From IMG/VR virus record IMGVR_UViG_3300032092_000005, positions 64,001 to 128,000 of that record: a stretch of 64,000 nt of DNA. One strand, 5' to 3'. Made by a program: the position numbers and the translations under genes. Positions within the stretch are counted from its first letter, which is position 1. Each line of letters starts with the position of its first letter. This DNA comes from a virus. The notes under the pieces were generated by a model. It saw only the letters and a program-made list of their open reading frames with translations. It searched no databases and was not told the DNA's origin. This document shows, piece by piece, positions 1,948 through 29,623 of this stretch.

Positions 1948-1964
1948 AATCTAGTCTTACTCAA

Positions 1965-1996
1965 TAAAAATGGAACCTTAGGGTTCCATTTTTTTA
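1965..1996. terminator. Bidirectional rho-independent terminator
   Basis: AAAAATGGAACC-TTAG-GGTTCCATTTTTTT between convergent gp32 and the tape-measure gene. Confidence 0.9.
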
Positions 1997-4900
1997 TCTA
2001 TACAAATAATTATATCCAAAAGTAGAAGAGACTGAGCGTTCAGTGCTTCCTATGATAGGATGTGAATACGTATCTCTTACGTTATCACTACCCGAACCGC
2101 CATTAATATTGGTAGATGTTACTGAAGAATTGTCTACGTATGTCGTAGGAGAAAATAGTGTTCCTCCGCCACTAATCGCACTAGTAGAATTTCCACCCGA
2201 GACTGTTCCTCCAGAAACAGGAATTACAGTGATATTATTTGTTCCAGTGCCGCCCATAGCCTTTACTACATTTCGAGATGCTGTATATCCTGTAAGAGAT
2301 GCAGTGCCGAAATTAGTTGATCCTGCAAGTGATGCCGATGAAACTGCTGCACCAGAAACTGGTGCTTTTAGGTCGGCAAGAGAACTTGATAGTGATGCAT
2401 TCTTTGTAGCAGCATCGCCTGGTTTGTCCTGATATTTTTGTGCAGATATCGACTTAGATACACTCTCTTCATACGCAACTGCTTCTTTCGTCAATTTTAC
2501 ATATCTTAAACGATTAGCTTCTGTAGGATTAGCTAGATATGTTGCATATGCCTCGTCTTTAATTTTTCTATATGCATCTTTTTTCTCTTGCAATTTTGTA
2601 TCTTTAGTAACGTCTGTCAACTCTGCGCCTAATCCTGTATCTTTTGCTATTCTATCCAATTCTTCTTTTGCTAATTTTAAGTTTAAAGCAACTTTTTCTT
2701 TGTCTGTATAAAACTTGTTAAAGTAGTCGGTCATGTACTTCTGATAAGCTTCTTTACCACCAAAATCTGTTATAAGTTTATCTGCTTGCTCTGCCCGAAG
2801 AATTGCATCTGTATTATTAGCAAGCTGAACGTTCAATTCATCGCCTTCACCATATGCTACAGTCTTATATACAGCAGCCTGAGCAGCAGTTCCAGGATTG
2901 TAAATATATGGGTTCGTGCCGCCGCCCTTGCCGAAGCCGGAGTATCGAATATTAAGTCCTGGTCGAAGTTGACGGCTTGCTCCCTTGCCGAAGCCCGTGG
3001 TGATATAGTCATCATCGGTGATTGCTCTGCTCGACGGCGCCACAGCGCCCACGGCAGCAGAAACTAATTGCTGATATGTGCCATAAAAATCTGCATTAGT
3101 TACTTTACCAGAAGCGATTCCCTGTGCGCGTAATGCTTCTACATTAAAACCTGTAGGTAGCATACTGTTTGCATAATCTCCTGCAATCGCACCGACACCT
3201 AAACCAAAAGTATCGCCGTATCCCAACATCTTACTAGCAGTGCCTGCAATTGAATAAGATGTTGCTAGGCGATTCATTGCGCCTATAGAATCTTCTCCTT
3301 CTAGTTTAAATCTTTCAAATATTGGAAACACACTCGTCAACATTCCATTATTGAATGTCTTCAGCGTGTCTAACAACATCTGATTTTGTTCTTCTATAGA
3401 CTTTTCAAAAAATTCTAGTTGTATAGATTGCGTAAAATCTTCAAACTTTTGAGATGTTGTTAATCCTAGTATTGTAGTCGCCTTTTTCATGTTAGCGAGA
3501 TTGTCGTCTACATCTTTCATTAATGCTTCTGCTACTTTAGGATCAACACCAAAATTAGTTCTGGTATTTCTATCGCTAGAGTACATACCACCCTTTTCAC
3601 GCATGTTCTTATAGCCCTGCAATGAAGTGCCAGAACCGCCTGCTTCTTTGGATGCTCCAAGAGTGCCTTCAATTCCTATATTTGTAAGGTATGGTGCACT
3701 TCGGCCGAACAAACGATTGACTGCTGCGCCAATAAGACCAGCGCCGATTGGACCTAAAGGCGTCAGGCCACCAATGAAAGTAGCAATATCCGCTACGCCT
3801 TTCATATCACCATCTAATGTGTATCCGCCGGAGAGCGCACCAGATATACTCATAGCGCCCATGCCAGCGCCAACGGCTCCTAAAACTGAACCCGCTTGTA
3901 TAGCAGCATTGCTTCCTGCAAATGCGTCCATCACATTTCCATAAGCACTTAATCCGGGCGACGATAGTCCAAGTCCAATGTCACCGATAACTGTTCCGGA
4001 GGCGCCGCCTATCATATTGCCAAGCCCTATCACACCTCTCTGCAATAATGCTCCTGGAGCTAGTCTAGCAATCGTTTGTTCTAATCCAACACCACCAGAA
4101 GTTATTAGGTTTTTAATTATTGCATTAATACCAGTCTGAGCATAGACACCACTTAGACTATCTGTTTTCACCCCTAAAGCGTTTCCAATAAATTTACCGC
4201 CAAGATTTGATAAGAAGTCTCCACCAGCAGCAGCGCCACCTTTACCTCCTGTTATCATGTTGCCAATTCTACCTAAGAAAGAATCGCCGCCTCCACCACC
4301 ACCCGGAGCACTACTCATAATTCCGCCAGCATCGCGGCTACCCCAGCCAGCAAGATCAGTGCCACTTGCGCCTGAACCAGTAAGAGCACCAAAAATTGTG
4401 CCTAAAATTCCACCACCACTACCACCTGCGCCGCTGCCACTACCGCTAACATTTGCATTAAAGTTTCTACCAGCTTCACCTACACCATAAACAAATTCTT
4501 GTGCAGCAGCAGTAGCGCCTGCAACCTGAATTTGTGCATTTTGAGTTGCTGCATTTTGATTAATAATACCAGCGTTTGTTGCAGAAACTTCTGCGGCTGA
4601 TACTCCAGAAGTCGATCCCATGTTGAACAATGGGGAGAATGGCTTTGATGTAATACCCGCAAGACTCTTAGAAAAGTTATTAATGCCTTGTTCATATCCA
4701 AATGCACTTCTAAGGTCGGTAGAGATGCCCGTCATGCCATATAATAAGTCTGACCAACCCATGCCTTCATTGCCAGAAGCAAAGTTGTTCAGCGAACGAT
4801 TCATTTGATCACTACTCATTCCCAATACAGGAGCTAATACGCTACCAACTAATTGATTACCGTAACTTCCTGCAAGTTGCGTGAATATTGAACCAATTCC

Positions 4901-7900
4901 TCTACCAGCTTCTTTACCGAATATTTGAGTAGCTAAATTATTCATAGGTTCAGCTAAGAATTTATTTGCTATATTTCCACCAGCATTAGTAGTAGCAGCA
5001 GTGCCTGTAACTCCCATAGGAATTGCAGCAGTCAACATATTTCTGTAATTATTTTCTAGGGTTTGTCTAAATTGTTTTTCTAGACCATCACGCTCATTTC
5101 TATACTTCTTATTTTCAGCATCTACCTTTTCACGATAGACTTGCTGAGCCTTCATCTCATCCAGTTGAGCTTGAGATAGAACAGGAGTTTGAATATTAGC
5201 TTTAGTAACTTCATCCTGTATTGCTTTTTGTACAGGATCCATAGCTCCCTGCGCAACAATTACAGGATCATCTTTTCTGCCAGTTGGCGCATCACTTGGA
5301 GAGTTTACATTACTATTACTTTCTTCATTGCCATAATTAAAATAATTGCCGCCTGATGCTTTAGACAATTGTGCAACAATTACAGGATCATCTTTTCTGC
5401 CAGTTGGCGCATCACTTGGAGAGTTTACATTACTATTACGTCTTTCATTGCCATAATTAGAATAATTACCGCCGGCACTGCTTGATGATGCTTTAGAAAG
5501 TTGTGCCAATACACTAGCAGAATTTTTTGCCATTGCAGCACGATTTTCACCAGTCTGATAAGGACTTGCTGGACGTTCTATTTCTGTAGTGAAATACTTA
5601 GTAGCATCTGATAGTGTTGTCGATCTTCTAAATCCTTCACCAAAACCAAATTCACCTTTAGCTTCTCTAATGATCAATGCAATGTTATTATCTGGATTCT
5701 TTAAATATTCTGAACTATATCCTTTTCCAAGTCCACCAGCAGTGTTTATCTGAAATAAACCAAAAGATGCTTCCTTAGAAGATACGTTACCCGCGTTTGG
5801 ATTTAATCTAGATTCTGCATACGCATTAACTACAGCCGCTTGTGCTTGAATATCACTAAATCCTGCACCAATAAATCCTTTATAGATTTTTTCTGCCATC
5901 GCAGTCTGTTGCGGAGTAAGATTTGATAATTGACCCGAATAGTCTGGAGAAACTGGAGAAACTACATAAGGAGTAAGTGATGAAGATGCACCAGATGATG
6001 ATGCTCCAGCAGTATCTACTTTAGGTTTGTTAGCGATAGCTTTATTAGCTAATCTTGTACTTTCATCATAATTATCATTTACTGTAGCTCTTTCTGCATC
6101 AAGTTTACCTTGTGCAGGATTTGCCATAGGAGTGTATGTATCTTTTTGGAATGTTTTTGGTATAAATTCAGTCTTCTGATAGTTTTGACTAAACTTTTGT
6201 GCAACATATTCTTTATATACTTTTTTTGGAGCTTCTGCTTCAGCTTTAGTTTCAGATATAAACTTTTTTATGCTATCAGTCTTTGCAATATCAGGAATAA
6301 ATTTATCTGCTAACTCAGCAACTTTCTTTCTTGTAGAAAGTAACGCGCTATCTATAATATTTCCAATATCAAAGAATAGTTTACCCACAAAATTTTGTAC
6401 AACAGTTATAGTACTACTAACGCTATCGTATATTTTACCTAGAGTTTCGCTGCCTTTTATATAATTACTAATGCCATTAACAAGTTTACCAAAAGCATTA
6501 CTCATATCAACTCCGAGTTGACCGAAATAATTTGATATGTCTACACCCACTTCACCTAAAAAATTTCTAACCCGAATGTCCATTGCCTCATCCAGCATTG
6601 AAGCATGTTTGATATCTTCTTTAGCTGCGGCAAAATCTCCACTCATTACATTTCCTATTGCGCTCCAGTAATCTCCTAAATATGCACCGAGATCGCGGAA
6701 ATATCGAGTAACTGCCGTAGTAGCTCTTTGCTGATATGTGCCCTTTCCTTCATCTTTGGTTTGTTTTACATAATCAGTATTAAATACCCAATCAGAAATT
6801 TGTTGTCCAACATCTATTAGTCCACCAGTAAACGAAGCAACACCTCCACCTATAAATGCGGCTGCCCTATCTTTAATTGTAACTTCTCTTACATTTAAAT
6901 CTTTCTTTATTTGCTTAGTATCGAATGCTGAGAATAAACCTTCTACAGCAAATATTATAAGGTCTAAGAACGGTATTAATTTTCCAAAAGATTTAAGTGC
7001 CTTTGTTAATTGTGGAAATTGAACTGCAAGTCTTTCAAAAATTCCAGCGCCTTCTCCACCCATACCAAAAATATTTTTTATCCAACCAATTATATCATCG
7101 AACGATTTGGTAATATAAACTTTAGCAGACTCTAGCATTGGAGTTACATCTTTAAATATACCCGAAAATATACCAAAAAATGATGTCACCAATTTACCAA
7201 TTGCGCTTTCTTTAACAAATAAAGTGGCGCTATCAACAAGTTCACCAAATGTTTTAAATAAATTTTTGAATGAATTTATCTTCTCATCAAAAAGGCCAGC
7301 TACTTCATCAAACTTAAAGAAGTCTTTTAGTTTAGAAATTTTCTCGTCAAAGAAATCACCTATTGCTTCAAACTTAAAGAAGTCTTTTAGTTTAGAAATT
7401 TTCTCGTCAAAGAAATCACCTATTGCTTCAAACTTAAAGAAGTCTTTTAGTTTAGAAATTTTCTCGTCAAAGAAAGCACCTATTGCTTCAAACTTAAAGA
7501 AGTCTTTTAGTTTAGAAATTTTCTCGTCAAAGAAAGCACCTATTTCATCTACTCTCAGGACCTTTTTAAAATCTTCTATAAATTTGCCAATAGTCTTAGA
7601 TGTTTCTGGAAACAATTCACTAAATGCTGTAAATATCTTTCCAGGCAGTTCTTTGAAGAACAAAAAGATATCGTCTAGTTTAAGTGCTTCCCTTAATTTT
7701 GCAAACTTTTCAGCAAGAAAAGCACCTATTTCTTCTATTCTGAAGAATTTTTTAAAATCATCTACAAATTTTGCAATAGCTTTAGTTGTTTCAGGAAATA
7801 TTGCACTAAAAGATTTAAACAATCTACCAGGCAATTCTGTAAAGAATTTAATTAGGTTCTTAAATCCTTCTATTACATTAACTGGCAGTTCTTTGAAGAA

Positions 7901-8518
7901 TTTAATTAGGTTCTTAAGGCCTGCCATTAAATTGTCTGGCAGTTCTTTGAAGAATTTAATAAGATTTTTAATACCCGTCATTAATAGACCAGGTAATTCT
8001 GTGAAAAATTTAATAAGATATTTAAATGCAGCCAATAAGGATTCTTTAAGTCCTTTAAATATATCACCTAAAGTATCAAAAAATGTTTTTGTTTTCTTAC
8101 CGTCGGCTAATGCGTCTGCTGCTTTTGCGGCGCCAGCACCGGCGGTAGCGGCAGGTAATACTGCATTTAAAAGTTTCTTTAAAGGAGAATCTTCAACTTT
8201 GTCTTTGTTTACATTATTTAAACTAAGCGCAAGCATTCTCTTAAGAGTATTATCAATACTATGCAGAGTTCCCAACATATCGCTAGTAACTTTTTTCTGC
8301 TCATTAGCATTTTCTTCTGCAAACTGTCTATCTTGTTGACGTTGAGCAAAATCTCTTTTTTGCATTGTCACTTGACTAGCCATGACACTTTGAATGCCCT
8401 TCATAGCAAGGCCAAAACCAGCAGGATTAGCAGACATAAAGGCGCCCTTTATGCCTGCTCCAAAGCCTGACATTGATTTTTGTATACTACCAGCGAGTTT
8501 AGATGTTAGATCAGCCAT
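1994..8518 (-). CDS. Tape-measure / baseplate hub protein (gp29-like position) with internal lysozyme-like domain
   Basis: 2174 aa; follows gp26-gp51 on the minus strand; amphipathic helical repeats; AES..NP.A...FGLFQ...ERPA lysozyme-like motif; Gly/Ala-rich hydrophobic stretches; C-terminal ...VDNS...tail. Confidence 0.75.
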   Translation of the reverse strand: MADLTSKLAGSIQKSMSGFGAGIKGAFMSANPAGFGLAMKGIQSVMASQVTMQKRDFAQRQQDRQFAEENANEQKKVTSDMLGTLHSIDNTLKRMLALSLNNVNKDKVEDSPLKKLLNAVLPAATAGAGAAKAADALADGKKTKTFFDTLGDIFKGLKESLLAAFKYLIKFFTELPGLLMTGIKNLIKFFKELPDNLMAGLKNLIKFFKELPVNVIEGFKNLIKFFTELPGRLFKSFSAIFPETTKAIAKFVDDFKKFFRIEEIGAFLAEKFAKLREALKLDDIFLFFKELPGKIFTAFSELFPETSKTIGKFIEDFKKVLRVDEIGAFFDEKISKLKDFFKFEAIGAFFDEKISKLKDFFKFEAIGDFFDEKISKLKDFFKFEAIGDFFDEKISKLKDFFKFDEVAGLFDEKINSFKNLFKTFGELVDSATLFVKESAIGKLVTSFFGIFSGIFKDVTPMLESAKVYITKSFDDIIGWIKNIFGMGGEGAGIFERLAVQFPQLTKALKSFGKLIPFLDLIIFAVEGLFSAFDTKQIKKDLNVREVTIKDRAAAFIGGGVASFTGGLIDVGQQISDWVFNTDYVKQTKDEGKGTYQQRATTAVTRYFRDLGAYLGDYWSAIGNVMSGDFAAAKEDIKHASMLDEAMDIRVRNFLGEVGVDISNYFGQLGVDMSNAFGKLVNGISNYIKGSETLGKIYDSVSSTITVVQNFVGKLFFDIGNIIDSALLSTRKKVAELADKFIPDIAKTDSIKKFISETKAEAEAPKKVYKEYVAQKFSQNYQKTEFIPKTFQKDTYTPMANPAQGKLDAERATVNDNYDESTRLANKAIANKPKVDTAGASSSGASSSLTPYVVSPVSPDYSGQLSNLTPQQTAMAEKIYKGFIGAGFSDIQAQAAVVNAYAESRLNPNAGNVSSKEASFGLFQINTAGGLGKGYSSEYLKNPDNNIALIIREAKGEFGFGEGFRRSTTLSDATKYFTTEIERPASPYQTGENRAAMAKNSASVLAQLSKASSSSAGGNYSNYGNERRNSNVNSPSDAPTGRKDDPVIVAQLSKASGGNYFNYGNEESNSNVNSPSDAPTGRKDDPVIVAQGAMDPVQKAIQDEVTKANIQTPVLSQAQLDEMKAQQVYREKVDAENKKYRNERDGLEKQFRQTLENNYRNMLTAAIPMGVTGTAATTNAGGNIANKFLAEPMNNLATQIFGKEAGRGIGSIFTQLAGSYGNQLVGSVLAPVLGMSSDQMNRSLNNFASGNEGMGWSDLLYGMTGISTDLRSAFGYEQGINNFSKSLAGITSKPFSPLFNMGSTSGVSAAEVSATNAGIINQNAATQNAQIQVAGATAAAQEFVYGVGEAGRNFNANVSGSGSGAGGSGGGILGTIFGALTGSGASGTDLAGWGSRDAGGIMSSAPGGGGGGDSFLGRIGNMITGGKGGAAAGGDFLSNLGGKFIGNALGVKTDSLSGVYAQTGINAIIKNLITSGGVGLEQTIARLAPGALLQRGVIGLGNMIGGASGTVIGDIGLGLSSPGLSAYGNVMDAFAGSNAAIQAGSVLGAVGAGMGAMSISGALSGGYTLDGDMKGVADIATFIGGLTPLGPIGAGLIGAAVNRLFGRSAPYLTNIGIEGTLGASKEAGGSGTSLQGYKNMREKGGMYSSDRNTRTNFGVDPKVAEALMKDVDDNLANMKKATTILGLTTSQKFEDFTQSIQLEFFEKSIEEQNQMLLDTLKTFNNGMLTSVFPIFERFKLEGEDSIGAMNRLATSYSIAGTASKMLGYGDTFGLGVGAIAGDYANSMLPTGFNVEALRAQGIASGKVTNADFYGTYQQLVSAAVGAVAPSSRAITDDDYITTGFGKGASRQLRPGLNIRYSGFGKGGGTNPYIYNPGTAAQAAVYKTVAYGEGDELNVQLANNTDAILRAEQADKLITDFGGKEAYQKYMTDYFNKFYTDKEKVALNLKLAKEELDRIAKDTGLGAELTDVTKDTKLQEKKDAYRKIKDEAYATYLANPTEANRLRYVKLTKEAVAYEESVSKSISAQKYQDKPGDAATKNASLSSSLADLKAPVSGAAVSSASLAGSTNFGTASLTGYTASRNVVKAMGGTGTNNITVIPVSGGTVSGGNSTSAISGGGTLFSPTTYVDNSSVTSTNINGGSGSDNVRDTYSHPIIGSTERSVSSTFGYNYLYR
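5253..5473. repeat. 120-bp (40-aa) tandem duplication in the tape measure
   Basis: Near-identical copies offset by 120 nt (GGNY.NYGNE..NSNVNSPSDAPTGRKDDPVIVAQ x2). Confidence 0.95.
7308..7547. repeat. 60-bp (20-aa) tandem repeat, about 4 near-identical copies
   Basis: agtcttttagtttagaaattttctcgtcaaagaaa(t/g)cacctatt recurs at 7321, 7381, 7441, 7501; encodes FFDEKISKLKDFFKFEAIG(A/D). Confidence 0.97.
7830..8030. repeat. 54-bp (18-aa) degenerate tandem repeat, 4 copies
   Basis: LIKFF(T/K)ELP units spaced 18 aa; ggcagttctttgaagaatttaat at 7884 and 7938. Confidence 0.9.
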
Positions 8519-8539
8519 TTTTCTCTTTTTTTATTGTTA

Positions 8540-8743
8540 TTATCTTCTAGAAGACCTAGCTTTTTGTTTGTTCTCATTATCTTTTTGTCTATCAGCTTCC
8601 TCTTTGATAAACTGCGCGAGTAATGTGATATATATTTCCCTCTCAAAAGGCATCATTTCTTCCAATTCTGTTAAACTGTATTTATGATGCTGTATCAATG
8701 CAAAGTTTGTCTTATAATGATTAATTAGACTATCATTTGACAA
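8540..8743 (-). CDS. gp51: Baseplate hub assembly catalyst
   Basis: L..HYKTNFAL.QHHKYSLTELE.M.P.EREIY..LL signature; adjacent to gp26. Confidence 0.9.
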   Translation of the reverse strand: MSNDSLINHYKTNFALIQHHKYSLTELEEMMPFEREIYITLLAQFIKEEADRQKDNENKQKARSSRR

Positions 8744-8745
8744 AC

Positions 8746-9486
8746 TTAACCGAAAAAACTTGTCATTCCCTCAAGTTCGATGTGTTCTTTGCATCCACAC
8801 TTAGAACATTTCCAATCAAAATCTTGTTTTAATTTTGGAATGGTTCCAAAGAATTCGGTTAGTTTTGCAAACTGGTCTTGATTTAAGTCATTAATGAATG
8901 TTAAAAGCTCGGCTCTAGAAGATTCTGAAGCTGGATAGACTGCTTCTGCATCAAAGATATAATCAATACTGTTACACACAATATCAACAATAGTATCTAT
9001 TTGTGATTTATCTTTTGAATCATTTGCTTTTGCAGACATTGATACTGTAGGATACTTTAATACAATGCCAATCTTAGACTCTTCATCCAACATAATCTTT
9101 GGACTATGTTTTGGATCTTTAACTACGTCAACATCCATCAAGTTTAATTTCAATGGTGTAGCGTGTGAGCATTCTACGCCCTCAGAGTTAATTCCATTTG
9201 GATGGCGAAGTTGAATATCAATAATTTCTCCAATAGATTTTGCTCTAAGTTTCAAGAAGAAAAACTCTAAATCGAACATAGGCATATCATCTACTTCAAT
9301 ATCATCGATTGAACAGTTGTTGATAATCTGTTTAATTGCTCTAAACATTTCTGTCGGCTCTTCACTTTCAAGTGCCATAAGCAATAGTTTCTGTTCCTTT
9401 ACTAAGAAAGGTCTGTATTTAACGGGTGCGCCGTTTGATGGTAAATTCAATTCAAAAATTGGTGATTTAATTTTAGGTAAAGCCAT
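8746..9486 (-). CDS. gp26: Baseplate hub subunit / assembly chaperone
   Basis: MALPKI..P.FEL.LPS....KYRPFLVKEQK.LL.A.ES, FD.E.FFL.LRAKSIGE, C-terminal CxxC and LEG..SFF. Confidence 0.93.
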   Translation of the reverse strand: MALPKIKSPIFELNLPSNGAPVKYRPFLVKEQKLLLMALESEEPTEMFRAIKQIINNCSIDDIEVDDMPMFDLEFFFLKLRAKSIGEIIDIQLRHPNGINSEGVECSHATPLKLNLMDVDVVKDPKHSPKIMLDEESKIGIVLKYPTVSMSAKANDSKDKSQIDTIVDIVCNSIDYIFDAEAVYPASESSRAELLTFINDLNQDQFAKLTEFFGTIPKLKQDFDWKCSKCGCKEHIELEGMTSFFG

Positions 9487-14196: not shown

Positions 14197-15150
14197 ATGC
14201 AATTACAATTTTTAGAGTATATTCAAAAAAGAGATTTTGAAGCATACTCACTACTATCAGAAAAGCTTATCACATTTAACAATGGTGCAAAATATGGTCA
14301 GATTGTTTTTCTTGCTGGTGGTGCCGGCTCTGGAAAAGGCTTTGCTATTGATAACTATATATCTGGTAATGACTTTAAAATTCGTGACGTTGATGAATTA
14401 AAAATTGCATTTCAAAAACTAGATGGCATGGGCAAGTTCACTACAGACGATCTATTGAAGAAATATGGCGACAAGATTAAGGAATCGGACGCTGCATTCA
14501 TTGAAAAGCACATCACTTCAAAAGGACTCAGCCTTAGTCAATTTAACTTAAAAGTTCCAGAGCATGTATACGCATTGCACGTATTGATAAGAGCTACTGG
14601 CGTAAAAGAAAAAACCTTGGATTTATTACTAGATGGTGCTAAAGAAAATATTTTACCTAATGTGTTGTTTGATTCTACTTTTGCAGATATGTCGGATCTT
14701 GAGTCATATCTTCCTAGGTTAATTGAAATAGGATATGATCCTAAGAACATTCATATTGCATGGGTGTTAACAAACTATGAGATTGCAATGAAGAACAATG
14801 CAAAACGTTCTAGAGTTGTGCCCGATGATATTCTTTTAAGAACACACAAAGGTGCTGCACAGACGATTCTAAGTTTAGTTAAGAAAAGCTTGCCTATCAC
14901 AATAGATGGAGGCATTTATGTCATTCTAAATAATCCAGAGAACACAATGTTTCTGATTGATCCAAAGACGGGCGAACACTACAAAAATATCAAAGGTAAA
15001 AAAGTTGTCAAAGACTTTCTCTATATCACAATGAAGAAGCCTGGAAAAGCAATCACGACAGATGCTGACGTTAAGAAGCAGCTATACACATGGATCAAAG
15101 ACAATGTGCCGCCAGATTCGATAGACACAAAAGAGTTAGATGATCTATGA
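14197..15150 (+). CDS. P-loop kinase/NTPase (zeta-toxin / AAA_33-like)
   Basis: Walker A IVFLAGGAGSGKG, RDVDELK, Walker B-like VLFDST, lid-like N.KR.RVVP. Confidence 0.75.
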   Translation: MQLQFLEYIQKRDFEAYSLLSEKLITFNNGAKYGQIVFLAGGAGSGKGFAIDNYISGNDFKIRDVDELKIAFQKLDGMGKFTTDDLLKKYGDKIKESDAAFIEKHITSKGLSLSQFNLKVPEHVYALHVLIRATGVKEKTLDLLLDGAKENILPNVLFDSTFADMSDLESYLPRLIEIGYDPKNIHIAWVLTNYEIAMKNNAKRSRVVPDDILLRTHKGAAQTILSLVKKSLPITIDGGIYVILNNPENTMFLIDPKTGEHYKNIKGKKVVKDFLYITMKKPGKAITTDADVKKQLYTWIKDNVPPDSIDTKELDDL

Positions 15151-15188: not shown

Positions 15189-16958
15189 ATGTTTTTAGGT
15201 AGAGATGGATTTATATGGTGGATTGGTGTCGTTGAAGACAATCAAGACCCATTGGTTCTGGGCAGAGCTAAAGTTAGAATTTATGGTTATCATGCGCCAG
15301 CCCTAAGTTTAGGCACAGCCACATCAAGTCCTAGTCCATACATTCCAGGAAGAGCCGCAGGGATATTTCTTGGAGGATCTAATATATATGGGTCATTCAC
15401 ATCTACTCCGGCTGTTGCCGAAGACGAAGAAGCTAATCAAAATATATCAATCGGCAAGGACGATGGAGAAATGCCAACGTCTGATCTTCCTTGGGCAGTA
15501 ACACTAATGCCAGCAAATATGCCAGGAGCATATGGCATACCTAATCTTGGTGATTGGGTTCTTGGATTTTTCTTAGACGGTGAAGAAGCGCAAGAGCCAT
15601 GTATTCTTGGATATCTTCCTGGTATACCGCCAGGAACAATTCCTACAGATATAACAGAAAGGTTCTCAGAGCAAATTTCTACAGTTCGTTCTTTCAATAG
15701 TGTAGCGAATGTTCTGCCAAATTCCTATGCCGTAACAGGTAACGCTCAGAAAAATAGATTCAGATTTGAACAGCCATCTGGTAATGTATTCGAAATGGTT
15801 AACGACACCAGCATTGCTAATCCTATATCATTAGCGCATAGTAGTCTTGCAAATTTACAACTAAAATATAAATCAGCAATTTTAGGATTGAATGCTTCCG
15901 AGGGCGAAAATCAAAATATTGAGATTAAAGATACGTCCATATTCTTAAGACACTATAATGGCATATACGGTAGAAGTTCTGTAATGCCTGCAAGTACAGA
16001 GAATTCAGTTCGATCACAATCAATATTGCCAGCTAAACAATTTAGTATAGGCAATGCTCTTCCGGGCACAGCAGCGATTGGTAGAGATGTTGTATATACC
16101 GTACCCGCACAAGTGAACGTTCCGGGATATACATATTATCATCCGTCACGCGCAGATATAAATCCGACTTGGGAGGAACAAGATTTAGTACGTAATGTTG
16201 GATTACTAATGAATACAGTATTTCCTCCACAACCAGTAATAATATCTACAATCGCAGCACTTCCTCCTCCGCCTCGCGGTGGTGGTGGTGGAGGATGCTT
16301 CTTAGGTGAAACACTTGTCACTATGTCTGATTGGACAAAAAAGCGTATTGATCAGATTAAAGACGGTGATTATGTTTTCAATAAAGATAAAACAGAAGTG
16401 AATCAAGTTCTTTTCATCGAAAGAGTCCCAGATAAGTACATGTGGAAAGAACTGTATACGCCGACTGGAGACTATGAACCATTTGCGACACCGAATCATC
16501 CATTGTTTGTAGAAGGAGAATGGGTAGCATTAGATAATGAACTCTATCCGTGGTTAGGAAAGATCAATAGCGTTAAGAATCCAATTACATGCGAAACTCA
16601 AGGTGAATTAGTCTACAATCTATGGGTTACTGGAGATGGTACATATATAGTTAATGGCTTTGGTACTACATCTATTATGATGGATGGTGGAATTATGCGA
16701 GTTGCATATCAGTATAGATACTTATCGCAAGATATTATCATGGAAATAATGCGCGAATTCACGACACAAGGCAATATGATGACGTATGGATCATATATAT
16801 TCAATAAATTATTTGGATACATCACATACAAACCAATCGTTAAGGTATTAGCGAATACGATTAAAAGTGAAAAGGAGTTTCTACCAAGAAAAGCTATGAT
16901 ATTTTTGATGAAAGTATTCGGTAAGACTGCAACATTTTACAATAAACTCAAAGGATAA
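15189..16958 (+). CDS. gp5: Baseplate central spike protein with C-terminal Hint domain
   Basis: F.WWIGVVED.QDP..LGR.KVRI.G.H, LPWA, G.WV.GFFLDG..AQ.P.ILG.LPG (gp5 OB fold); Hint domain begins at Cys370. Confidence 0.9.
   Translation: MFLGRDGFIWWIGVVEDNQDPLVLGRAKVRIYGYHAPALSLGTATSSPSPYIPGRAAGIFLGGSNIYGSFTSTPAVAEDEEANQNISIGKDDGEMPTSDLPWAVTLMPANMPGAYGIPNLGDWVLGFFLDGEEAQEPCILGYLPGIPPGTIPTDITERFSEQISTVRSFNSVANVLPNSYAVTGNAQKNRFRFEQPSGNVFEMVNDTSIANPISLAHSSLANLQLKYKSAILGLNASEGENQNIEIKDTSIFLRHYNGIYGRSSVMPASTENSVRSQSILPAKQFSIGNALPGTAAIGRDVVYTVPAQVNVPGYTYYHPSRADINPTWEEQDLVRNVGLLMNTVFPPQPVIISTIAALPPPPRGGGGGGCFLGETLVTMSDWTKKRIDQIKDGDYVFNKDKTEVNQVLFIERVPDKYMWKELYTPTGDYEPFATPNHPLFVEGEWVALDNELYPWLGKINSVKNPITCETQGELVYNLWVTGDGTYIVNGFGTTSIMMDGGIMRVAYQYRYLSQDIIMEIMREFTTQGNMMTYGSYIFNKLFGYITYKPIVKVLANTIKSEKEFLPRKAMIFLMKVFGKTATFYNKLKG
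16296..16673 (+). other. Hint (Hedgehog/intein-like) autoprocessing domain within gp5
   Basis: Block A CFLGETLVTMSD..KKRIDQIKDGDYV, block B ATPNHPLFV (TxxH), blocks F/G VYNLWVTGDGTYIVNGFGTTS; no terminal His-Asn and no endonuclease. Confidence 0.9.
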
Positions 16959-16964
16959 ATTATT

Positions 16965-17141
16965 ATGACAAACCACACACAAATTACAGACACACAAGTT
17001 GAAGAATGGGCACAGGTTCTTACTCCTCAAGAAATTCTTGATCTATCAAATGGTATCAATATTACAGCAGCAATGATTATGTTTAAACTGTTTCCAAACA
17101 ATCAGTTCATCAAAGAACTATTGAAGACTAAGATTGGTTGA
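16965..17141 (+). CDS. Small hypothetical protein, 58 aa (absent from the ORF track)
   Basis: MTNHTQITDTQVEEWAQVLTPQEILDLSNGINITAAMIMFKLFPNNQFIKELLKTKIG*; AAGGA RBS; starts 6 nt after the gp5 stop. Confidence 0.7.
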   Translation: MTNHTQITDTQVEEWAQVLTPQEILDLSNGINITAAMIMFKLFPNNQFIKELLKTKIG

Positions 17142-17235: not shown

Positions 17236-17427
17236 ATGACACATCATGAAACACTTGTAGATTTATTTAATTCCTACGTAAAGGAAAATGAAAAATTTTC
17301 TGAGAAGGGAAACAAAGCAGCAGGAACTAGAGCAAGAAAAGCACTAGCAGAATTTGCAAAGGTTTCTAAAGACAGAAGAAAAGAGATTCAAGACTCAAAA
17401 ATTAGTGAAAAATTGGAAATTATCTAA
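17236..17427 (+). CDS. Small basic histone H1-like (Hc1-type) protein
   Basis: KF..KGNKAAGTRARKAL.E..K....RRKEIQ motif; AAGGA RBS. Confidence 0.75.
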   Translation: MTHHETLVDLFNSYVKENEKFSEKGNKAAGTRARKALAEFAKVSKDRRKEIQDSKISEKLEII

Positions 17428-23530: not shown

Positions 23531-26500
23531 ATGTCTACTCCAGGTAATATCAATTTAAACGTAAGTCCGTACTATGACGATTATAATGAGGATTCAGATT
23601 TCGTAAGAGTTCTATATCGTCCAGGGCGCGCAATTCAAGCAAGAGAATTGACACAAGCCCAAACATATCAACAGAAGCAATTTGAAAGATTTGCAAATTT
23701 TATTTTTGATGAAGGTGCTATTGTTGATGGATGTGAAATTTCTCCAAATTTAAAACTAGATTATGTTAAGCTTCAGTCAACATATTCTGGCAACACAGTA
23801 GTAGTAAACAATTTTGTTGGTCAACAAATTATTGGTGCTAATACTGGTGTTATTGCGCGAGTTAATTTAGCTACTGATCTTGAGGGCGATGATCCTAAGA
23901 CGCTATTCATATCTTACACTAGCGGTGGTGGTGCATTATTATCGTGCAACACTAACGACCAAATGGTTGTTGGTAATGAAATTAAATTTTCATTTCCTAT
24001 AGACACTACAAACACAGCCACAATTACTTCAGTATGGGACGATCCATACACAGGACAACCTTATTTTGTAATTACTGGCTCTGGAGATTTTCCAACTACA
24101 GTTCCAAATACAATAACAGGAACAAGCACCGACGTAAACGGAAGTCCATTTACTGTTTTATTGAATACTGGATTTGATAAGAGAACGTCTTCAAAATTTG
24201 AAGATTCTGAAATATTAATTTGCACTACCACTACTGGCACATTCTACGCAAATACTGCAACTTTAGATGCGACACAACATGTTGTTGATCCAGATAGTGA
24301 AACCGAAGTTACTTTTACAAAAGGTTCTGCATTAACTATTGGTGCAGGAATTGTTTATATTGCAGGTCATTTTGTAAATCGTGATTCGCAAACAATCGTA
24401 TTAGACAAATACACTAATACACCATCTTACAAAGTTGGATTAGTTCCTAATGTCGAATTTGTAGATTCGATTGATGATTTTTCATTAGTCGATAATGCGC
24501 AAGGAAGTCCTAACTTTCAAGCACCGGGCGCAGATAGACTTAAAATTACAACAACACTCAAAAAGTATGATTTGAATGATGATGTAGTTTTGGATAGTTT
24601 TGTGTCTTATGTTGAAATTGACGAGGGCACAATAAGAAAGCGTAAAACTATTGAAATTGGTGGTCAAATTGAAGATGCTATTGCACAGCGTACATATGAA
24701 GAATCTGGTGACTACACATTAAACGATCCAATTATTGCTGCGCGTGAGCATTTAATTAATGGTGATAATCGTGGACGATATACTCTAGGACAAGGAGGCG
24801 ATAATGAACTTCTAATTATTAACGTTGATCCAATAACAGCATATGTTTCGGGATATAGATATGAAACTGTTGGTAAAGCGGAAGTTAATATTCGCAAAGG
24901 AACAGATACTCAATATAATGAACAAGTAAAAACACAATTAGCTTTTGGCGGTGGCATAAATGTTAAAGAAGTTGTCGGCGCCTGGGATATCAATCAAGGC
25001 ACTAAAGTAGATATATACAACACTTTTCAGACTGCAATTTCAAATACAACCTTTGCTTCTACTACAGTAGCTGGTACTAAAATTGGTACTGCTAGAATTA
25101 AGTCTTTAGAATTCGTAAGTGGTACTCCAGGAATATCTACTGCTGTATATAATTTCTATCTATATGATATAGCTATGTTAGCTTCAGCCGATTTTTCTAC
25201 TGCGCGTTCATTTTATCTTCCTGGCTCTCCAGCAAAATTTGCAGACATTGTTCTGGACGATTTAGGGCGAGCGGTACTGTCGGACGCAACATTTGATAAA
25301 CTGATTTTTAAATTGCCATACAGCGCAACAAAAACTCTACGTGATACTAACAACAACATTGAATCTGGATTTTATTTTAAATCTGAAAAATCATTTACTT
25401 TTACTTCTGGTAGTGCTACCTTAAATTCTACGGATGCTAGTGAAACTTTTGAGGGTACTGGTGCATTGACTGTCTCACAGAAAAATAATAATTACTATCT
25501 TGTGCCAACAACTACATCAAACACTGCTGCTTTGACTGGTACTGTAGCAATTGCTGCAAGTAGTAATGTAGTAGTAGGTACAGGAACAACATTCTCATCG
25601 CAGTTTAATGTTGGAGATGTTATTCGTGTAAATAGTCTAGATAGAATTGTGGGTGCTATTAGTAATGCGACACACATGACGTTGACTACAACTCATACTG
25701 GTGCGACTGCAAATACATATTCTAAATCTTTTCCTGCGGGCAAACCAATTAGTTTATCTGGATTTGGAACATACGGTTCAGGAGTAAGAAGCGCGACAGT
25801 CGGCACAGGAGGTGCATCCATTACGATTGATATTGCAGAGAATATTGCACCTGATGCTAAACTAATTGCTTCAATGGCTAGAAGTAATGCTAGAGAAAAG
25901 TCTAAGCTATTAAGCTACGGTAATGAAGTTTATATTCAAGCGAACACTCATCCTATCGGAATAACTGGACCATGGAGTTTAGGAAAAGGTGACGTAATTA
26001 CAGTACGTGCAATTTATCAGGCAAATAATTTTGCTTCTGTTCCTACGACAGCAAACACTAACGTAACTGCATATTATACTCTTAACAATGGTCAGACTGA
26101 TAATACATACGAACATGCAACACTCTCACCAATTAATGGAACTATTCCTACTGGTAGATTGCTAGTAGTATTTGATTCATATAATCATAACACTACTCAA
26201 GGTACTGGATACTTCTCAATCGATTCATATCCAATTAATGACTCGATAGATTCAAATACTACGATTACGACTTCAGAAGTTCCTGTATACATTAGTAAAA
26301 AAACTGGAGATACATATAATCTACGCGACTGTTTAGATTTTAGACCAATTAAGACTGCAAACACTACTGCAATAAATCCTATTGATCCAGAAACGTATCA
26401 AATACCTACAACTGGTTCTGTCGGTCTTCACATTCCTACACCAGATTCTGATTTTGATGCAGACTTGATTTATTATAAGGGTAGAAAATCTAGATTATAT

Positions 26501-29500
26501 CTAGATCAAGATGGAGAATTCAAAATCAACGATGGTCCTGCTTTAGATCAAGATTCTACATCACCAGCAGCTATTCCAGGTACACTACAGTTAGCAGAAT
26601 TGACTATTCCTCCATACCCATCTTTAATATCTGGAGTCGGCATAACTCCATTTAAAAATAGAAGATATACTATGCGGGACGTTGGCTCTATTGAACAAAG
26701 AGTATTCGATTTAGAAGCTTATAATTTAATGAATTCTGCTGAAAAGCAAGTTGTAAATACTGTCATTGTCGATTCTGTTACTGGTGTAGACAAATTAAAA
26801 AATGGACTTTTAGTAGACGTATTTACTGGACACAATACTGCTGACGTAAACTCTCCATTATACAAAGCGTCAATTGATAGACATAATAATTGTGTGACAG
26901 CATATTCAAATAATGAAATGCAGATCGCATTAGCATATAATACGGCTGGTTCTTCTGGTGTAACTAAAACATCTGGTAAGAAATTGATGTTAGCGTACAC
27001 TCAGATTGTGTCTACAGCAAATCAGTATTTTGTTACATCAAATACTATAATATCTGATATTCCAAGTAATTTTGTTGGAGATTTATCTCTATTTCCATCT
27101 ACAGATAACTGGCTCAATACTACAAGAGTTCCTGGAAAAGATTTAGCAAATGATCCTACAGGACAATTAGATAACTGGAAAATTAGAGCAGATGCATGGA
27201 ACACAGAAATTAATCCAGCAGTAAGATATTTTATCGGTGATAATCCTACAGTTCGTAGTTTAGAATCTACAGGAGTAGTTTCTTCAAGCGTTTCTTCTTC
27301 TACTGTAAGCGCATTGAATAGTGCTATTCTTACACAACAACAAACTAACCCTGCTACAGGCAGAGTTTTAGATACTTCTGTTCAACACACTATGCGTAGC
27401 CGTGATATTATTGTATCTGCAAATGGATTAAAAAATTCTACTAGACTGTACTTCTATTTTGATGGTATGGATGTTACTGCTAATACTACTCCGATATCAA
27501 TAAGTGGAACAATTTCTGACATTTATGAAACATTTGATGCTAATGGATTTCTTCCACAAACATCTGCATTATTCACTAGACAAATTGCAGGAGAAACTGG
27601 AATTACTTCAGCTAATGGTAAATTTACTGGCATTTTTAGAGTTCCGGCAGATAAATTTAATGTTGGTGCAAGAGAATTTAAAATTTCAGATAAATCTACT
27701 TACGGCGACACTTCAGAATCTTCTTATGCTAGATGTGTATTCTATGCACAAGGATCGTCTATAACAAGTACTAGCAGCATTTTAGACACAAGACCTACTA
27801 ATAGATTATCAAATAAATCTTTAGTTTCTTCGTTAGAAAAAGACGTTGAAAGTGGCACAGCTACAAGAATTATTGATCCTCTGATTCAAACATTCACTGT
27901 AGACCCAAGCACATACACTAAAGGTATGATGGTAACTTCAGTTGATTTATTTTTTGCAGCAAAACCAACTACATCCTCTACTGATGGCGTGACTTTAGAT
28001 ATTAGAGAATATGATTACGTTAGCAAAGCACCATCTCGAAATATTATTGGAAATCAAATTGCTAGATTAGAGAATAGTTCAATTAATGTTAATACGAATC
28101 CTACGTCAAGCACTCCTAGTACGTTTACATTCTCTAATCCTATATATTTACAACCTGGTAAAACATATTGCATTGCTATTAAGCCTGATGGCAATAATCC
28201 TGCATATAAATTGTGGATTGCAGAAGCTAATCAAAGAGACTTATCATCTTCGACAATTACGAATAGATATGTTACATTAACTTCACAGACTGAATTGTGG
28301 ACACCATCGTCAGGTGGAAAATGGACAAAATCAACTACTAAAGACTTAAAGTTTGCAGTAAAAATTGCTCGATTCTTTGATCCTAAATTAGTAACATCTA
28401 AAAGAGGTGTTGCAGTATTAAACAATATGCCAATTTCTAATACAATTAGTGGCATTACTTATACTGGAATATATCCAAATGTTGAAGATTTATCTTTGTC
28501 TGCTACTGAAATTGCATATGAAATAGCACAAGCTAATGCTTCATCTTCATCTGTTTCTACTTTCACTCAGATTAAAAATTTAGAACTTATTAAAAATAGC
28601 GTCCTATATCAGATATCTAACACTGCAACAGAATTTACTGGTGGATTTAAATCATTAAAAATTCGCGCATCACTTAGAACCGATGATGCATATGTTTCTC
28701 CATATATTGATTTGCAAAGAATTAATTGTGCGTTGACTAAAAATGAAATTAATGATTCACTATATGCTACTGTAACAGGTACTGCTGAATTGAGTTCATC
28801 TAGTAATGTTGTTATTGGATATGGAACAACATTTAGCACAGAGCTTGCTGGTGTGAAATATATTAAAACATCGACAAATGAATACCGTCAAATTATCAGT
28901 ATCAGTAACAATTCATACTTAACTGTTGCAAACAATTTTAATACGACTTCTAATGGAGTATCAATATATTACAATACTGAAGATAATCCAGTAGGACCAC
29001 ACACAGCATTAAGTAGATATATCACAAGAGTTGTTACATTGAATGATGGATTTGATTCTTCAGACTTAATTGTGTACTTAGACGTTAATCGCCAGAAGAC
29101 TACTGATATTAAGGTATACTATAAGATATTGAATAGCGCAGATCAGGATGCGTTTAATGATAAATTCTGGACAGAAATGAGTTTAGAAGGTCTTAAAACA
29201 TTTGCAACATCTCCTAATGACTACTCGCTGCAAAAATATGTAGTACCACAGTTTGGTAAAAAGATAGTACTATTAACTGGAACTGCAAATACTAATACTA
29301 CTACTGCTGCAATAGTTGGAACAGGCACATTGTTCACTGAGCAACTGAAAGCTAATGACACTATTGCACTTGGATTAAGTAAGACTCAAGGTATTGTTTC
29401 AAGTATTTCAAATAATACCTATATGACATTGCAATCTGTTCCTGCTGCTAACACTACAGGACAAGACATATATAGATCAATGGAAAATACTATTACATAT

Positions 29501-29623
29501 ACTACACCTAATGGTATAACATACAGTGGATTTAAATCTTTTGCAGTAAAAATAGTATTTTTGTCTAGCAATATTTGCAATATTCCTAAAGTTAAAACTG
29601 TTAGGGCAGTCGCTTTAGTATAA
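23531..29623 (+). CDS. Large baseplate-associated structural protein (VrlC / DUF4815-like)
   Basis: N.SPYYDD....F.RVL.RPG...QARELTQ.Q, N.QAPGADR, A.RTYEESGDY, RRYTMRD.G..E.R, SRYIT..V.L, F..FA.KIV. Confidence 0.85.
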   Translation: MSTPGNINLNVSPYYDDYNEDSDFVRVLYRPGRAIQARELTQAQTYQQKQFERFANFIFDEGAIVDGCEISPNLKLDYVKLQSTYSGNTVVVNNFVGQQIIGANTGVIARVNLATDLEGDDPKTLFISYTSGGGALLSCNTNDQMVVGNEIKFSFPIDTTNTATITSVWDDPYTGQPYFVITGSGDFPTTVPNTITGTSTDVNGSPFTVLLNTGFDKRTSSKFEDSEILICTTTTGTFYANTATLDATQHVVDPDSETEVTFTKGSALTIGAGIVYIAGHFVNRDSQTIVLDKYTNTPSYKVGLVPNVEFVDSIDDFSLVDNAQGSPNFQAPGADRLKITTTLKKYDLNDDVVLDSFVSYVEIDEGTIRKRKTIEIGGQIEDAIAQRTYEESGDYTLNDPIIAAREHLINGDNRGRYTLGQGGDNELLIINVDPITAYVSGYRYETVGKAEVNIRKGTDTQYNEQVKTQLAFGGGINVKEVVGAWDINQGTKVDIYNTFQTAISNTTFASTTVAGTKIGTARIKSLEFVSGTPGISTAVYNFYLYDIAMLASADFSTARSFYLPGSPAKFADIVLDDLGRAVLSDATFDKLIFKLPYSATKTLRDTNNNIESGFYFKSEKSFTFTSGSATLNSTDASETFEGTGALTVSQKNNNYYLVPTTTSNTAALTGTVAIAASSNVVVGTGTTFSSQFNVGDVIRVNSLDRIVGAISNATHMTLTTTHTGATANTYSKSFPAGKPISLSGFGTYGSGVRSATVGTGGASITIDIAENIAPDAKLIASMARSNAREKSKLLSYGNEVYIQANTHPIGITGPWSLGKGDVITVRAIYQANNFASVPTTANTNVTAYYTLNNGQTDNTYEHATLSPINGTIPTGRLLVVFDSYNHNTTQGTGYFSIDSYPINDSIDSNTTITTSEVPVYISKKTGDTYNLRDCLDFRPIKTANTTAINPIDPETYQIPTTGSVGLHIPTPDSDFDADLIYYKGRKSRLYLDQDGEFKINDGPALDQDSTSPAAIPGTLQLAELTIPPYPSLISGVGITPFKNRRYTMRDVGSIEQRVFDLEAYNLMNSAEKQVVNTVIVDSVTGVDKLKNGLLVDVFTGHNTADVNSPLYKASIDRHNNCVTAYSNNEMQIALAYNTAGSSGVTKTSGKKLMLAYTQIVSTANQYFVTSNTIISDIPSNFVGDLSLFPSTDNWLNTTRVPGKDLANDPTGQLDNWKIRADAWNTEINPAVRYFIGDNPTVRSLESTGVVSSSVSSSTVSALNSAILTQQQTNPATGRVLDTSVQHTMRSRDIIVSANGLKNSTRLYFYFDGMDVTANTTPISISGTISDIYETFDANGFLPQTSALFTRQIAGETGITSANGKFTGIFRVPADKFNVGAREFKISDKSTYGDTSESSYARCVFYAQGSSITSTSSILDTRPTNRLSNKSLVSSLEKDVESGTATRIIDPLIQTFTVDPSTYTKGMMVTSVDLFFAAKPTTSSTDGVTLDIREYDYVSKAPSRNIIGNQIARLENSSINVNTNPTSSTPSTFTFSNPIYLQPGKTYCIAIKPDGNNPAYKLWIAEANQRDLSSSTITNRYVTLTSQTELWTPSSGGKWTKSTTKDLKFAVKIARFFDPKLVTSKRGVAVLNNMPISNTISGITYTGIYPNVEDLSLSATEIAYEIAQANASSSSVSTFTQIKNLELIKNSVLYQISNTATEFTGGFKSLKIRASLRTDDAYVSPYIDLQRINCALTKNEINDSLYATVTGTAELSSSSNVVIGYGTTFSTELAGVKYIKTSTNEYRQIISISNNSYLTVANNFNTTSNGVSIYYNTEDNPVGPHTALSRYITRVVTLNDGFDSSDLIVYLDVNRQKTTDIKVYYKILNSADQDAFNDKFWTEMSLEGLKTFATSPNDYSLQKYVVPQFGKKIVLLTGTANTNTTTAAIVGTGTLFTEQLKANDTIALGLSKTQGIVSSISNNTYMTLQSVPAANTTGQDIYRSMENTITYTTPNGITYSGFKSFAVKIVFLSSNICNIPKVKTVRAVALV

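Follow-up and report, generated by a model that had tools for sequence, protein, structure and literature searches.

The window analysed here is a stretch of viral DNA of 64,000 nucleotides (nt), bases 64001-128000 of a 152-kb IMG/VR virus record (IMGVR_UViG_3300032092_000005) that is estimated to be 85% complete. Within a baseplate gene cluster on its plus strand lies the gene for a gp5-like central spike protein, whose last 220 residues form a Hint domain followed by a conserved helical tail. We refer to this C-terminal unit as the cassette, and number its residues from Cys1, which is Cys-370 of the spike. The gene, the parts of its product and the small p58 gene that follows it are listed in Table 1.

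Table 1. Coordinates in the window of the spike gene, the parts of its product and the p58 gene. pLDDT, predicted local distance difference test; ORF, open reading frame.
Feature	Position	Strand	Evidence
gp5-like central spike gene (P0001), 589 aa	15189..16958 incl. stop codon	+	ORF, stop-free translation; PHROG baseplate hub families, E 2e-28 to 2e-21; synteny
gp5 OB domain, residues 1-150, disordered insertion at ~43-84	15189..15638	+	profile 1pdl, E 8e-6; Foldseek 1k28/1pdl; pLDDT <50 at 43-84
Beta-rich spike body, residues ~160-355, closing helix ...STIAAL	15666..16253	+	short strands, pLDDT 70-88; Foldseek to phage P1, eCIS, PVC and VgrG central spikes
Linker PPPPRGGGGGG, residues 359-369; predicted scissile bond Gly369-Cys370	16263..16295	+	sequence; disordered in both models
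Hint domain, residues 370-495	16296..16673	+	fold Z 15.5, 13.2, 12.2 and 11.8 to BIL2, BIL, Vint and Hh; invariant residues
Cys370 (TGC codon)	16296-16298	+
Glu411	16419-16421	+
Thr434	16488-16490	+
His437	16497-16499	+
Ser495	16671-16673	+
Conserved C-terminal tail, residues 496-589 (94 aa), five helices, basic; motifs DGG, YGxYxxNK, RKxxxxxMKxxGK	16674..16955	+	pLDDT >90; tail-only profile
58-aa gene (p58), probably translationally coupled	16965..17141	+	6 nt after gp5 stop; AAGGA 9 nt upstream

The spike protein and its C-terminal Hint domain

The N-terminal part of the spike is confirmed to be gp5, the identity given to it in the first-pass annotation. It matches phrog_694 with E = 2.4e-28 and, in profile comparison, T4 gp5 (1pdl), while Foldseek finds T4 gp5 and the central spikes of phage P1, extracellular contractile injection systems (eCIS), PVC and VgrG. 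The AlphaFold2 model of the full-length protein (pLDDT 75.9) has the OB domain and beta body, a disordered linker at residues 359-368, and a compact C-terminal unit. The phage protein shares with T4 gp5 and VgrG the OB domain and a beta-structured spike, encoded within a baseplate cluster with gp25, gp6, gp53-like and gp48-like neighbours. However, T4 gp5 proper carries a lysozyme domain, and no lysozyme family was seen among the Pfam or PHROG matches to the phage spike beyond the OB part. Nor was a PAAR-motif gene detected in the 152-kb record. Phage Melnitz has separate, adjoining genes for its OB protein and a 'hub/lysozyme' protein.

The features which had drawn attention to the C-terminal part, a Gly linker abutting Cys-370, a TPNH motif, the absence of His-Asn, and a 94-residue tail, are all present in the 589-residue translation. 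The TPNH of block B occupies residues 434-437, and VYNLWVTGDGTYIVNGFGTTS, residues 475-495, includes Asn-489. The Hint core is 126 residues without an insert and ends ...GTTS at Ser-495, followed by Ile-496. An AlphaFold2 model of residues 356-589, made with 65 relatives (pLDDT 91.4, predicted template modelling score 0.87), shows a beta-rich Hint core and five helices. Compared with solved folds, it gives Z = 15.5 for Tetrahymena BUBL BIL2, 13.2 for a Clostridium BIL, 12.2 for Tetrahymena Vint, and 11.8 for Hedgehog (1AT0), the last with a root-mean-square deviation of 2.6 over 111 aligned residues, from C1 to the residue after C143. Many mini-inteins match at Z of 10-13, and Foldseek aligns the model to Hint domains with E of 1.9e-8 to 2.7e-3. 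On this model we regard the Hint fold of the C-terminal part as certain, and the fold matches, together with about 90 homologous proteins, carry its identity as Hint far beyond chance.

Pfam, however, gives only sub-threshold matches to Vint, Hint and PT-HINT (E of 4.6e-5 to 0.03). Vint (PF14623) scores 23.7 bits against a cut-off of 27, over profile positions 1-71 only; Hint scores 18.3 against 29.7, and PT-HINT, at E = 0.034, is also under its cut-off. No PHROG family was found for the cassette, or for the tail searched alone. Automated annotation thus misses the cassette family entirely.

The closest parallel in layout is the Hog domain, as in Drosophila HhC (PDB 1AT0 and 6TYY). In HhC, T69 and H72 assist C1 in forming the thioester, D46 serves to activate the hydroxyl of cholesterol, and C143 holds the branched intermediate, akin to the +1 residue of an intein (PMC12054796, from which the HhC sequence and residue roles were taken). 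All five active-site positions are matched in the phage cassette, by C1, Glu42 (for Asp46), Thr65 and His68 (for Thr69 and His72), and Ser126 (for Cys143). The phage motifs VLFIE42R, TPNH and IVN120GFGTTS126 stand against ILFMD46R, TPAH and VVN137SVAASC143 in HhC. In both proteins, the acid lies 23 residues ahead of the Thr and the residue at the second-nucleophile position six residues past the Asn; the equivalence of Glu42 and Asp46 is based on this motif and spacing, not on a printed structural alignment. Thus, the Hedgehog-like layout first noted from the linear sequence is borne out down to the active site, with Glu-411 of the spike aligned to Asp46 and Ser-495 to Cys143. Ser-495 offers a hydroxyl rather than a thiol, and is a candidate second nucleophile.

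The likeness extends to the C-terminal position past Gly, the Cys-Phe start, the TxxH motif, the GT(I/Y)(V/I)VN block, the lack of a terminal Asn, a helical region of about 70-95 residues that always follows the Hint domain, and unrelated N-terminal partners. On the other hand, Asp46 is replaced by Glu and Cys143 by Ser or Thr, and the phage tail has no detectable similarity to the sterol-recognition region (SRR). Hog domains are carried by secreted eukaryotic signals, whereas the cassette is carried by phage virion proteins, whose host bacteria are not expected to supply sterol. Unlike Hog, the cassette marks points of gene fission, and its similarity to Pfam Hint is under threshold.

Two protein searches and a scan of viral contigs together gave 148 distinct cassette sequences, in which conservation was followed. 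Cys1, Phe2, Glu42, Phe63, Thr65, His68, Trp86, Asn108, Trp110, Asp114, Asn120 and Thr124 are invariant, as is Gly165 in the tail. Position 126 is Ser in 138 members, Thr in 8, Cys in 1 and Asp in 1, while position 125, just ahead of this Ser, is Thr (95) or His (43). All 148 measure 210-247 residues between Cys1 and the stop, and the cassette is always terminal.

What is the relation of the tail to the rest of the protein? A tail-only profile (50 sequences, 92 positions) finds 123 clusters (at 50% identity) among 1.84 billion representative proteins, and wherever the protein is long enough to tell, the tail is the extreme C-terminus, directly after a cassette-type Hint domain. No Hint-less tail was found with this profile; the tail is coupled to the Hint domain, as an adduct-recognition region (ARR) would be, and it belongs to the Hint domain, not to gp5. 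Short Hint-less matches, considered as stand-alone tail proteins, were rejected, being gene-call fragments that start inside the Hint domain or the tail. The tail had been described as a Met/Tyr/Phe/Lys-rich amphipathic helical segment. The helices are there, and parts of the tail are amphipathic, but it is strongly basic rather than markedly hydrophobic: mean hydropathy over 18 residues reaches at most 0.93, no membrane-spanning stretch is present, and the family median net charge is +6 for the tail and -5 for the Hint domain.

Of the Hedgehog SRR, Vint and BIL structures with which a comparison of the tail had been suggested, Vint alone gives a partial overlap: the helical end of its crystal structure coincides with the first two helices of the tail, and the rest of the tail is unmatched. 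Neither in sequence nor in fold was similarity to the Hedgehog SRR or to a lipid-binding fold found, although no solved SRR was among the matches. Against solved structures, the tail gives nothing above Z = 4.7, and what does match (helices of NEL E3 ligases, HHAT and others) does not rise above the noise for helical bundles. Feature searches of the ESM Atlas with the tail gave no usable match. Beyond Gly and Asp, the tail contains no conserved catalytic residues.

We also compared the cassette with the other known Hint families. Vint, which occurs in VWA-Vwaint-Vint proteins of protists, fungi and giant viruses (PDB 8r2c), is its best Pfam match (PF14623, E = 4.6e-5) and shares its fold over 150 aligned residues, reaching the first two tail helices. 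However, the cassette proteins have neither VWA nor Vwaint, the score is below the curated cut-off, and the remaining tail is unmatched, so that the cassette does not fall within the Vint family. BIL domains (Tetrahymena BUBL BIL2, 6TMM and 6Y75; C. thermocellum, 2LWY) are the closest solved folds, and like the cassette are non-canonical Hint domains, cleaving or ligating rather than splicing; BIL2 needs no ATP to join a C-terminal Gly to Lys (PMC8616854). The cassette differs in having neither the C-terminal Asn (N143 in BIL2, His-Asn in the A-type) nor the C-flank that BIL domains retain, and in its obligatory helical tail, which they lack. An A-type BIL was rejected, as the Hint domain does not end in His-Asn, and so was a PT-HINT of polymorphic toxins, as a single conserved family rather than variable toxin modules follows the Hint domain.

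Inteins, and split inteins in 'fractured' genes, share with the cassette the Hint fold, the Cys1 and TxxH chemistry, sporadic insertion and split genes, but the cassette lacks a terminal Asn, an in-frame C-extein, an intein C-fragment on the second gene and a homing endonuclease. The proteins that carry the cassette are structural and not replication proteins. An intein with a C-extein was rejected because contiguous homologues place the continuation of the host protein, where there is one, in a separate gene, and a split intein because the second ORF starts directly with host sequence.

Distribution, host proteins and gene fission

The cassette family is found in viruses that have been sequenced without cultivation. 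About 90 database proteins match the 250-residue C-terminal part of the spike with E of 1e-28 to 1e-163; their N-terminal parts differ, and the match ends 0-43 residues from the C-terminus. Among 50,697 GenBank phage records, the cassette is absent, the one weak match being an unrelated intein-type sequence, while one genome for each of 185,579 prokaryote species yields three contigs from metagenome-assembled genomes, two of them short. Neighbours in the ESM Atlas are virus clusters, and Vint clusters align over 168-179 residues. Literature searches for Hint and BIL domains in structural proteins and baseplates of phages, and in pelagiphages and cyanophages, gave only ordinary inteins in terminases and similar proteins, and nothing on Hint domains that end phage virion proteins. 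The cassette is a new Hint subfamily with its own accessory domain, hosts and genomic behaviour.

The survey of Gp5_OB and Hint co-occurrence that the first-pass annotation had called for shows that 59 of the 148 members are gp5 OB proteins, and all close relatives of the window spike (N-terminal part 43-92% identical) carry the cassette. A further 33 are giant phrog_358/DUF4815 proteins. Other hosts are proteins of phrog_24848/2155/29022 ('virion structural protein') and of the Gly_rich_2 type, small proteins in which Cys1 comes after a hydrophobic stretch, and proteins that bear as many as four other Hint domains in tandem. In eight proteins (P0184, P0198, P0284, P0228, P0257, P0205, P0036 and P0048), one to four extra, more intein-like Hint domains precede the final cassette, and some of these end in ...VHN. 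Locus L016 (5566-8471) encodes a 372-residue protein with an N-terminal domain of about 115 residues, a Pro/Gly linker, the hydrophobic stretch WDIIPILLIIAGIGE, and the cassette. The N-terminal domain has no family match and is beta-rich by eye; the gene is followed by a p58 homologue and then by a 535-residue protein without a family match, in a context that is not recognisable as a baseplate cluster.

The phrog_358/DUF4815 virion protein of the window itself is contiguous, with 2030 residues (23531..29623, plus strand). In at least 19 viral loci, which include L011, L024, L035, L041, L057, L065 and L067, its homologue is encoded in two adjoining genes. ORF1 comprises the N-terminal part followed by linker, Hint domain, tail and stop; ORF2 starts 0-47 nt downstream and covers the remainder of the protein. 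There are at least two split sites, one near residues 1290-1320 of the window protein and one exactly at 1447/1448, where the ORF2 start MKPIGQTF aligns with DPLIQTF of the window protein. The PHROG profile is covered in L011 (ORF1 at 1246-6663, ORF2 at 6683-8863 of the locus) from position 5 to 1263 by ORF1 and from 1276 by ORF2. Proteins of phrog_24848 are likewise split, with cassette-bearing ORF1s covering about 3-394 of the profile and ORF2 of L026 covering 389-786. In the split giant proteins, the cassette is thus placed at inter-domain linkers, at which the chain of a contiguous relative runs on uninterrupted, and its departure would be required for the halves to fit together.

The linker ahead of Cys1 is less uniform than the active site. 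At least three Gly are present at positions -8 to -1 in 103 of the 148 members, and a poly-Pro run in 73. Residue -1 is Gly in 96 members, Asp in 19 and Glu in 7, that is, an acid in 26. Asp or Glu at -1 of inteins favours N-terminal cleavage. With Gly at -1 in 96 of 148 and an acid in 26, the analogy with ubiquitin-like modifiers conjugated through Gly-Gly, which the first-pass annotation had drawn, is weak. The syntenic cassette-less gp5 of locus L071 (protein P0100) ends ...PPPPPSPPSGNT, with Hc1 directly after. Therefore, the poly-Pro stretch is native to such spikes, and the Gly run and cassette are an addition.

A quick maximum-likelihood tree of 101 cassettes, in which several rows are on long branches, has two main groups. 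One comprises all the gp5-borne cassettes, with a well-supported nested clade of the phrog_24848 type, and the other those of phrog_358 and the remaining hosts. Host labels change 27 times on this tree, against a minimum of 11; even when only the strongly supported branches are counted, gp5 hosts require at least two changes and phrog_358 hosts at least three. On several occasions, therefore, the cassette has passed from one gene to another, unrelated one, yet it has mostly been inherited with its host. The proposal that it is not a selfish element is accordingly doubtful, as at least five unrelated host families, several host switches on the tree, and location at gene-split points are the behaviour of a mobile insertion. 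That it forms the tip of a membrane-piercing needle is an assumption, since it also ends internal fragments of giant fibre-like proteins.

Gene neighbourhood and the p58 protein

The gene order in the window is tail tube, gp48-like, gp53-like, phrog_350 tail protein, zeta-like P-loop protein, gp5, small ORF, Hc1, gp25, gp6 and baseplate wedge proteins, and the synteny around the spike gene is gp27-like, zeta-like, gp5, Hc1, gp25 and gp6. The phage is a distant uncultured relative of the marine T4-like pelagimyophages, because its gp6 best matches that of Pelagibacter phage HTVC008M, at 39% identity, and next that of Methylophilales phage Melnitz. There is one copy of the cassette in the 152-kb record, and its base composition, compared with that of its neighbours, bears no sign of recent import.

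The zeta-toxin-like P-loop protein (14197-15150, plus strand; phrog_5268, E = 1e-52; Pfam Zeta_toxin, E = 6e-5) is encoded between the phrog_350 tail protein and gp5, and its gene is also conserved in loci L071 and L073. Between gp5 and gp25 lies a gene for a 63-residue histone H1-like Hc1 protein (17236-17427, plus strand; Pfam, E = 6.6e-17), a placement kept in the related phage loci L071, L072, L073 and L002-L009. Two more giant ORFs flank the baseplate cluster, at 1994-8518 on the minus strand (2174 residues) and 29882-38230 on the plus strand (2782 residues), the second of which has fibre-like repeats at its end. Neither contains the cassette.

Homologues of p58, found by iterative search, lie between -18 and +45 nt from the end of the cassette gene in 20 of 68 loci. 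These loci include those of the gp5 type, those with the 372-residue non-gp5 host (L016 type), and L064. Gly30, Phe43 and Lys56 are invariant in 11 p58 sequences. No p58 gene is present in two syntenic loci (L071 and L073) whose gp5 has no add-on module. In P0094, P0101 and P0109, and at locus L072 (881-2160), the gp5 OB part is joined through a poly-Gly linker to another conserved module of about 150 residues, which starts KIICTKLYELG, ends in hydrophobic basic helices, and has no Pfam family. One such gp5 (P0109) has a 52-residue p58 homologue downstream (E = 7e-12). Therefore, p58 goes with C-terminal add-on modules and not with Hint alone, and a link between the two is likely. No Pfam or PHROG family was found for p58, and its feature search of the ESM Atlas gave no usable match. 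No fusion of p58 to a longer protein was found, in a word-based search that was crowded and is hence weak. Complex prediction for the cassette and p58 gave a score of 0.01 against a mark of 0.32, which counts neither for nor against an interaction.

Proposed processing of the spike and its alternatives

We think it somewhat probable, from the sequence and the model, that the last 220 residues are a self-contained Hog-type autoprocessing cassette, a Hint domain with an obligatory helical domain, which cuts itself off at Gly369-Cys370. The absence of an Asn at the end of the Hint domain, and of host sequence in frame after it, excludes splicing and leaves only the N-terminal chemistry possible; in this the first-pass view that the element is not an intein was right. 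We infer each chemical step from the sequence, fold, conservation, architecture and genomic pattern. After folding, Thr-434 and His-437 would promote an N-to-S acyl shift, converting the Gly369-Cys370 peptide bond to a thioester. The acyl group may then move to Ser-495, which is at the Hedgehog Cys143 or intein +1 position. Because a domain without a terminal Asn cannot splice, the ester would be resolved by an outside nucleophile, most likely water, probably activated by the invariant Glu-411, the counterpart of Hedgehog Asp46. The products would be a mature spike of OB domain and beta body ending ...PPPPRGGGGGG, and a free 25-kDa Hint-tail fragment. The cassette is portable: in the course of evolution it has come to occupy linker sites in several unrelated virion proteins of uncultured aquatic myophages, often dividing the host protein between two genes. 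Its removal would be needed for assembly of the host protein, and it could be either a tolerated mobile insertion or a removable aid to folding or docking.

In favour of self-removal are the Hint fold and the Hedgehog-like layout of the motifs, the invariance of C1, E42, T65 and H68, the Ser, Thr or Cys at position 126 in 147 of 148 members, the cassette being always terminal, the strict pairing of tail and Hint domain, the disordered Pro/Gly linker ahead of the cassette, the Asp or Glu at -1 in 26 members, its placement in the split giant proteins, and the end of the protein 94 residues past the Hint domain with no host-like sequence. T4 gp5 is itself matured by cleavage. Phage intramolecular chaperones (K1F endosialidase, T5 fibre and phi29; Peptidase_S74) are also removable C-terminal modules that cut themselves off trimeric spikes or fibres after assembly. 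They use a Ser-Lys dyad protease, however, whereas the cassette has an unrelated fold and predicted Hint thioester chemistry. The K1F and phi29 auto-chaperones (PMC3357383) are precedents for self-removing C-terminal modules on phage spikes. Several points weigh against hydrolytic self-removal. Hydrolysis alone would need neither a strictly conserved tail of 90 residues nor an invariant general-base Glu, which points towards a chosen acceptor, and no tail of this kind is needed for cleavage by BIL and PT-HINT domains. A ligating module would be expected to conserve its catalytic residues just as well, no cultured phage carries the cassette, and monomer models cannot show how it is placed on a trimeric spike.

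Could the acceptor be something other than water? In a Hedgehog-like transfer, an acceptor held by the tail would attack the thioester or the Ser-495 ester, so that the C-terminal Gly of the spike would be tagged or re-joined without an enzyme or ATP. Candidate acceptors are a membrane lipid or other hydroxyl compound, p58 through its invariant Lys56, or, in the split proteins, the product of the downstream gene. The strict coupling of Hint domain and tail is as in Hog domains, where Hint is joined to an SRR or ARR (PMC2362128), and there is an invariant Glu at the Asp46 position that in Hedgehog activates the cholesterol hydroxyl. Furthermore, the best structural match is ciliate BIL2, which makes its isopeptide bonds to Lys without ATP (PMC8616854), the downstream gene in at least 19 loci is the missing half of the host protein, p58, with its invariant Lys, accompanies add-on modules, and the tail is basic and partly amphipathic. 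We nevertheless consider such a transfer rather unlikely. Although the tail forms a single conserved family, the downstream partners are mutually unrelated and lack a common N-terminal motif or nucleophile; residue -1 varies; and the tail is unlike the Hedgehog SRR or any lipid-binding fold. As for p58, no fused form was found, and it also follows gp5 with a non-Hint module, hence it is not specific to thioester chemistry. The bolder proposal that the cassette is a one-sided, enzyme-free virion protein ligase, re-joining split giant proteins and, on the spike, linking p58 (at Lys56) or an envelope lipid to the oligo-Gly end, seems to us slightly less likely again.

Retention of the cassette is improbable. 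It would then be a structural knob, or cargo released only at infection, as with evolved VgrG effectors and PT-HINT toxins, and its basic tail would act on the host envelope. Consistent with this, gp5 is a VgrG homologue, the spike lacks a lysozyme domain, the record yielded no PAAR gene, the gp5 relatives P0094 and P0109 bear another poly-Gly-linked C-terminal module with hydrophobic helices, and there is the weak PT-HINT match. However, fragments from the interior of giant fibre-like proteins also end in the cassette, and a 25-kDa knob kept there would break up the structure. Toxin modules are polymorphic, but the tail is conserved, and it has no conserved catalytic residues beyond Gly and Asp; the invariant catalytic residues of the Hint domain argue for processing. 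The loss of the terminal Asn, and gene fission at insertion sites that recalls fractured genes with split inteins, could also be read as the marks of a decayed intein or an inactive split-intein remnant. We give this very little weight, for the catalytic residues are invariant in 148 sequences and 123 clusters, ORF1 holds the whole Hint domain, blocks A, B, F and G included, ORF2 opens directly with host sequence and no intein C-fragment, and inheritance in the gp5 clade is long-term and vertical. Self-removal of the cassette remains the reading we prefer.

Hog-type autoprocessing is regarded as a eukaryotic invention. The present unit has the Hog layout, with all five Hedgehog active-site positions matched, and is found only in uncultured phages, which makes it a candidate prokaryotic-virus relative of Hog and Vint, two domains of unknown origin according to Bürglin 2008 (PMC2362128). 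It is also a candidate maturation chemistry for phage spikes and fibres, of which no description was found in the literature searched, and a case of a protein-level self-removing element that accompanies gene fission of giant structural proteins. If active, this compact natural module (220 residues, C-terminal and Gly-linked) could serve to make protein thioesters. If the cassette were a ligase, it would be the prokaryotic-virus counterpart of Hedgehog cholesteroylation or of ciliate BUBL conjugation. The family should thus be of interest to those who study inteins, Hedgehog proteins and phage assembly.

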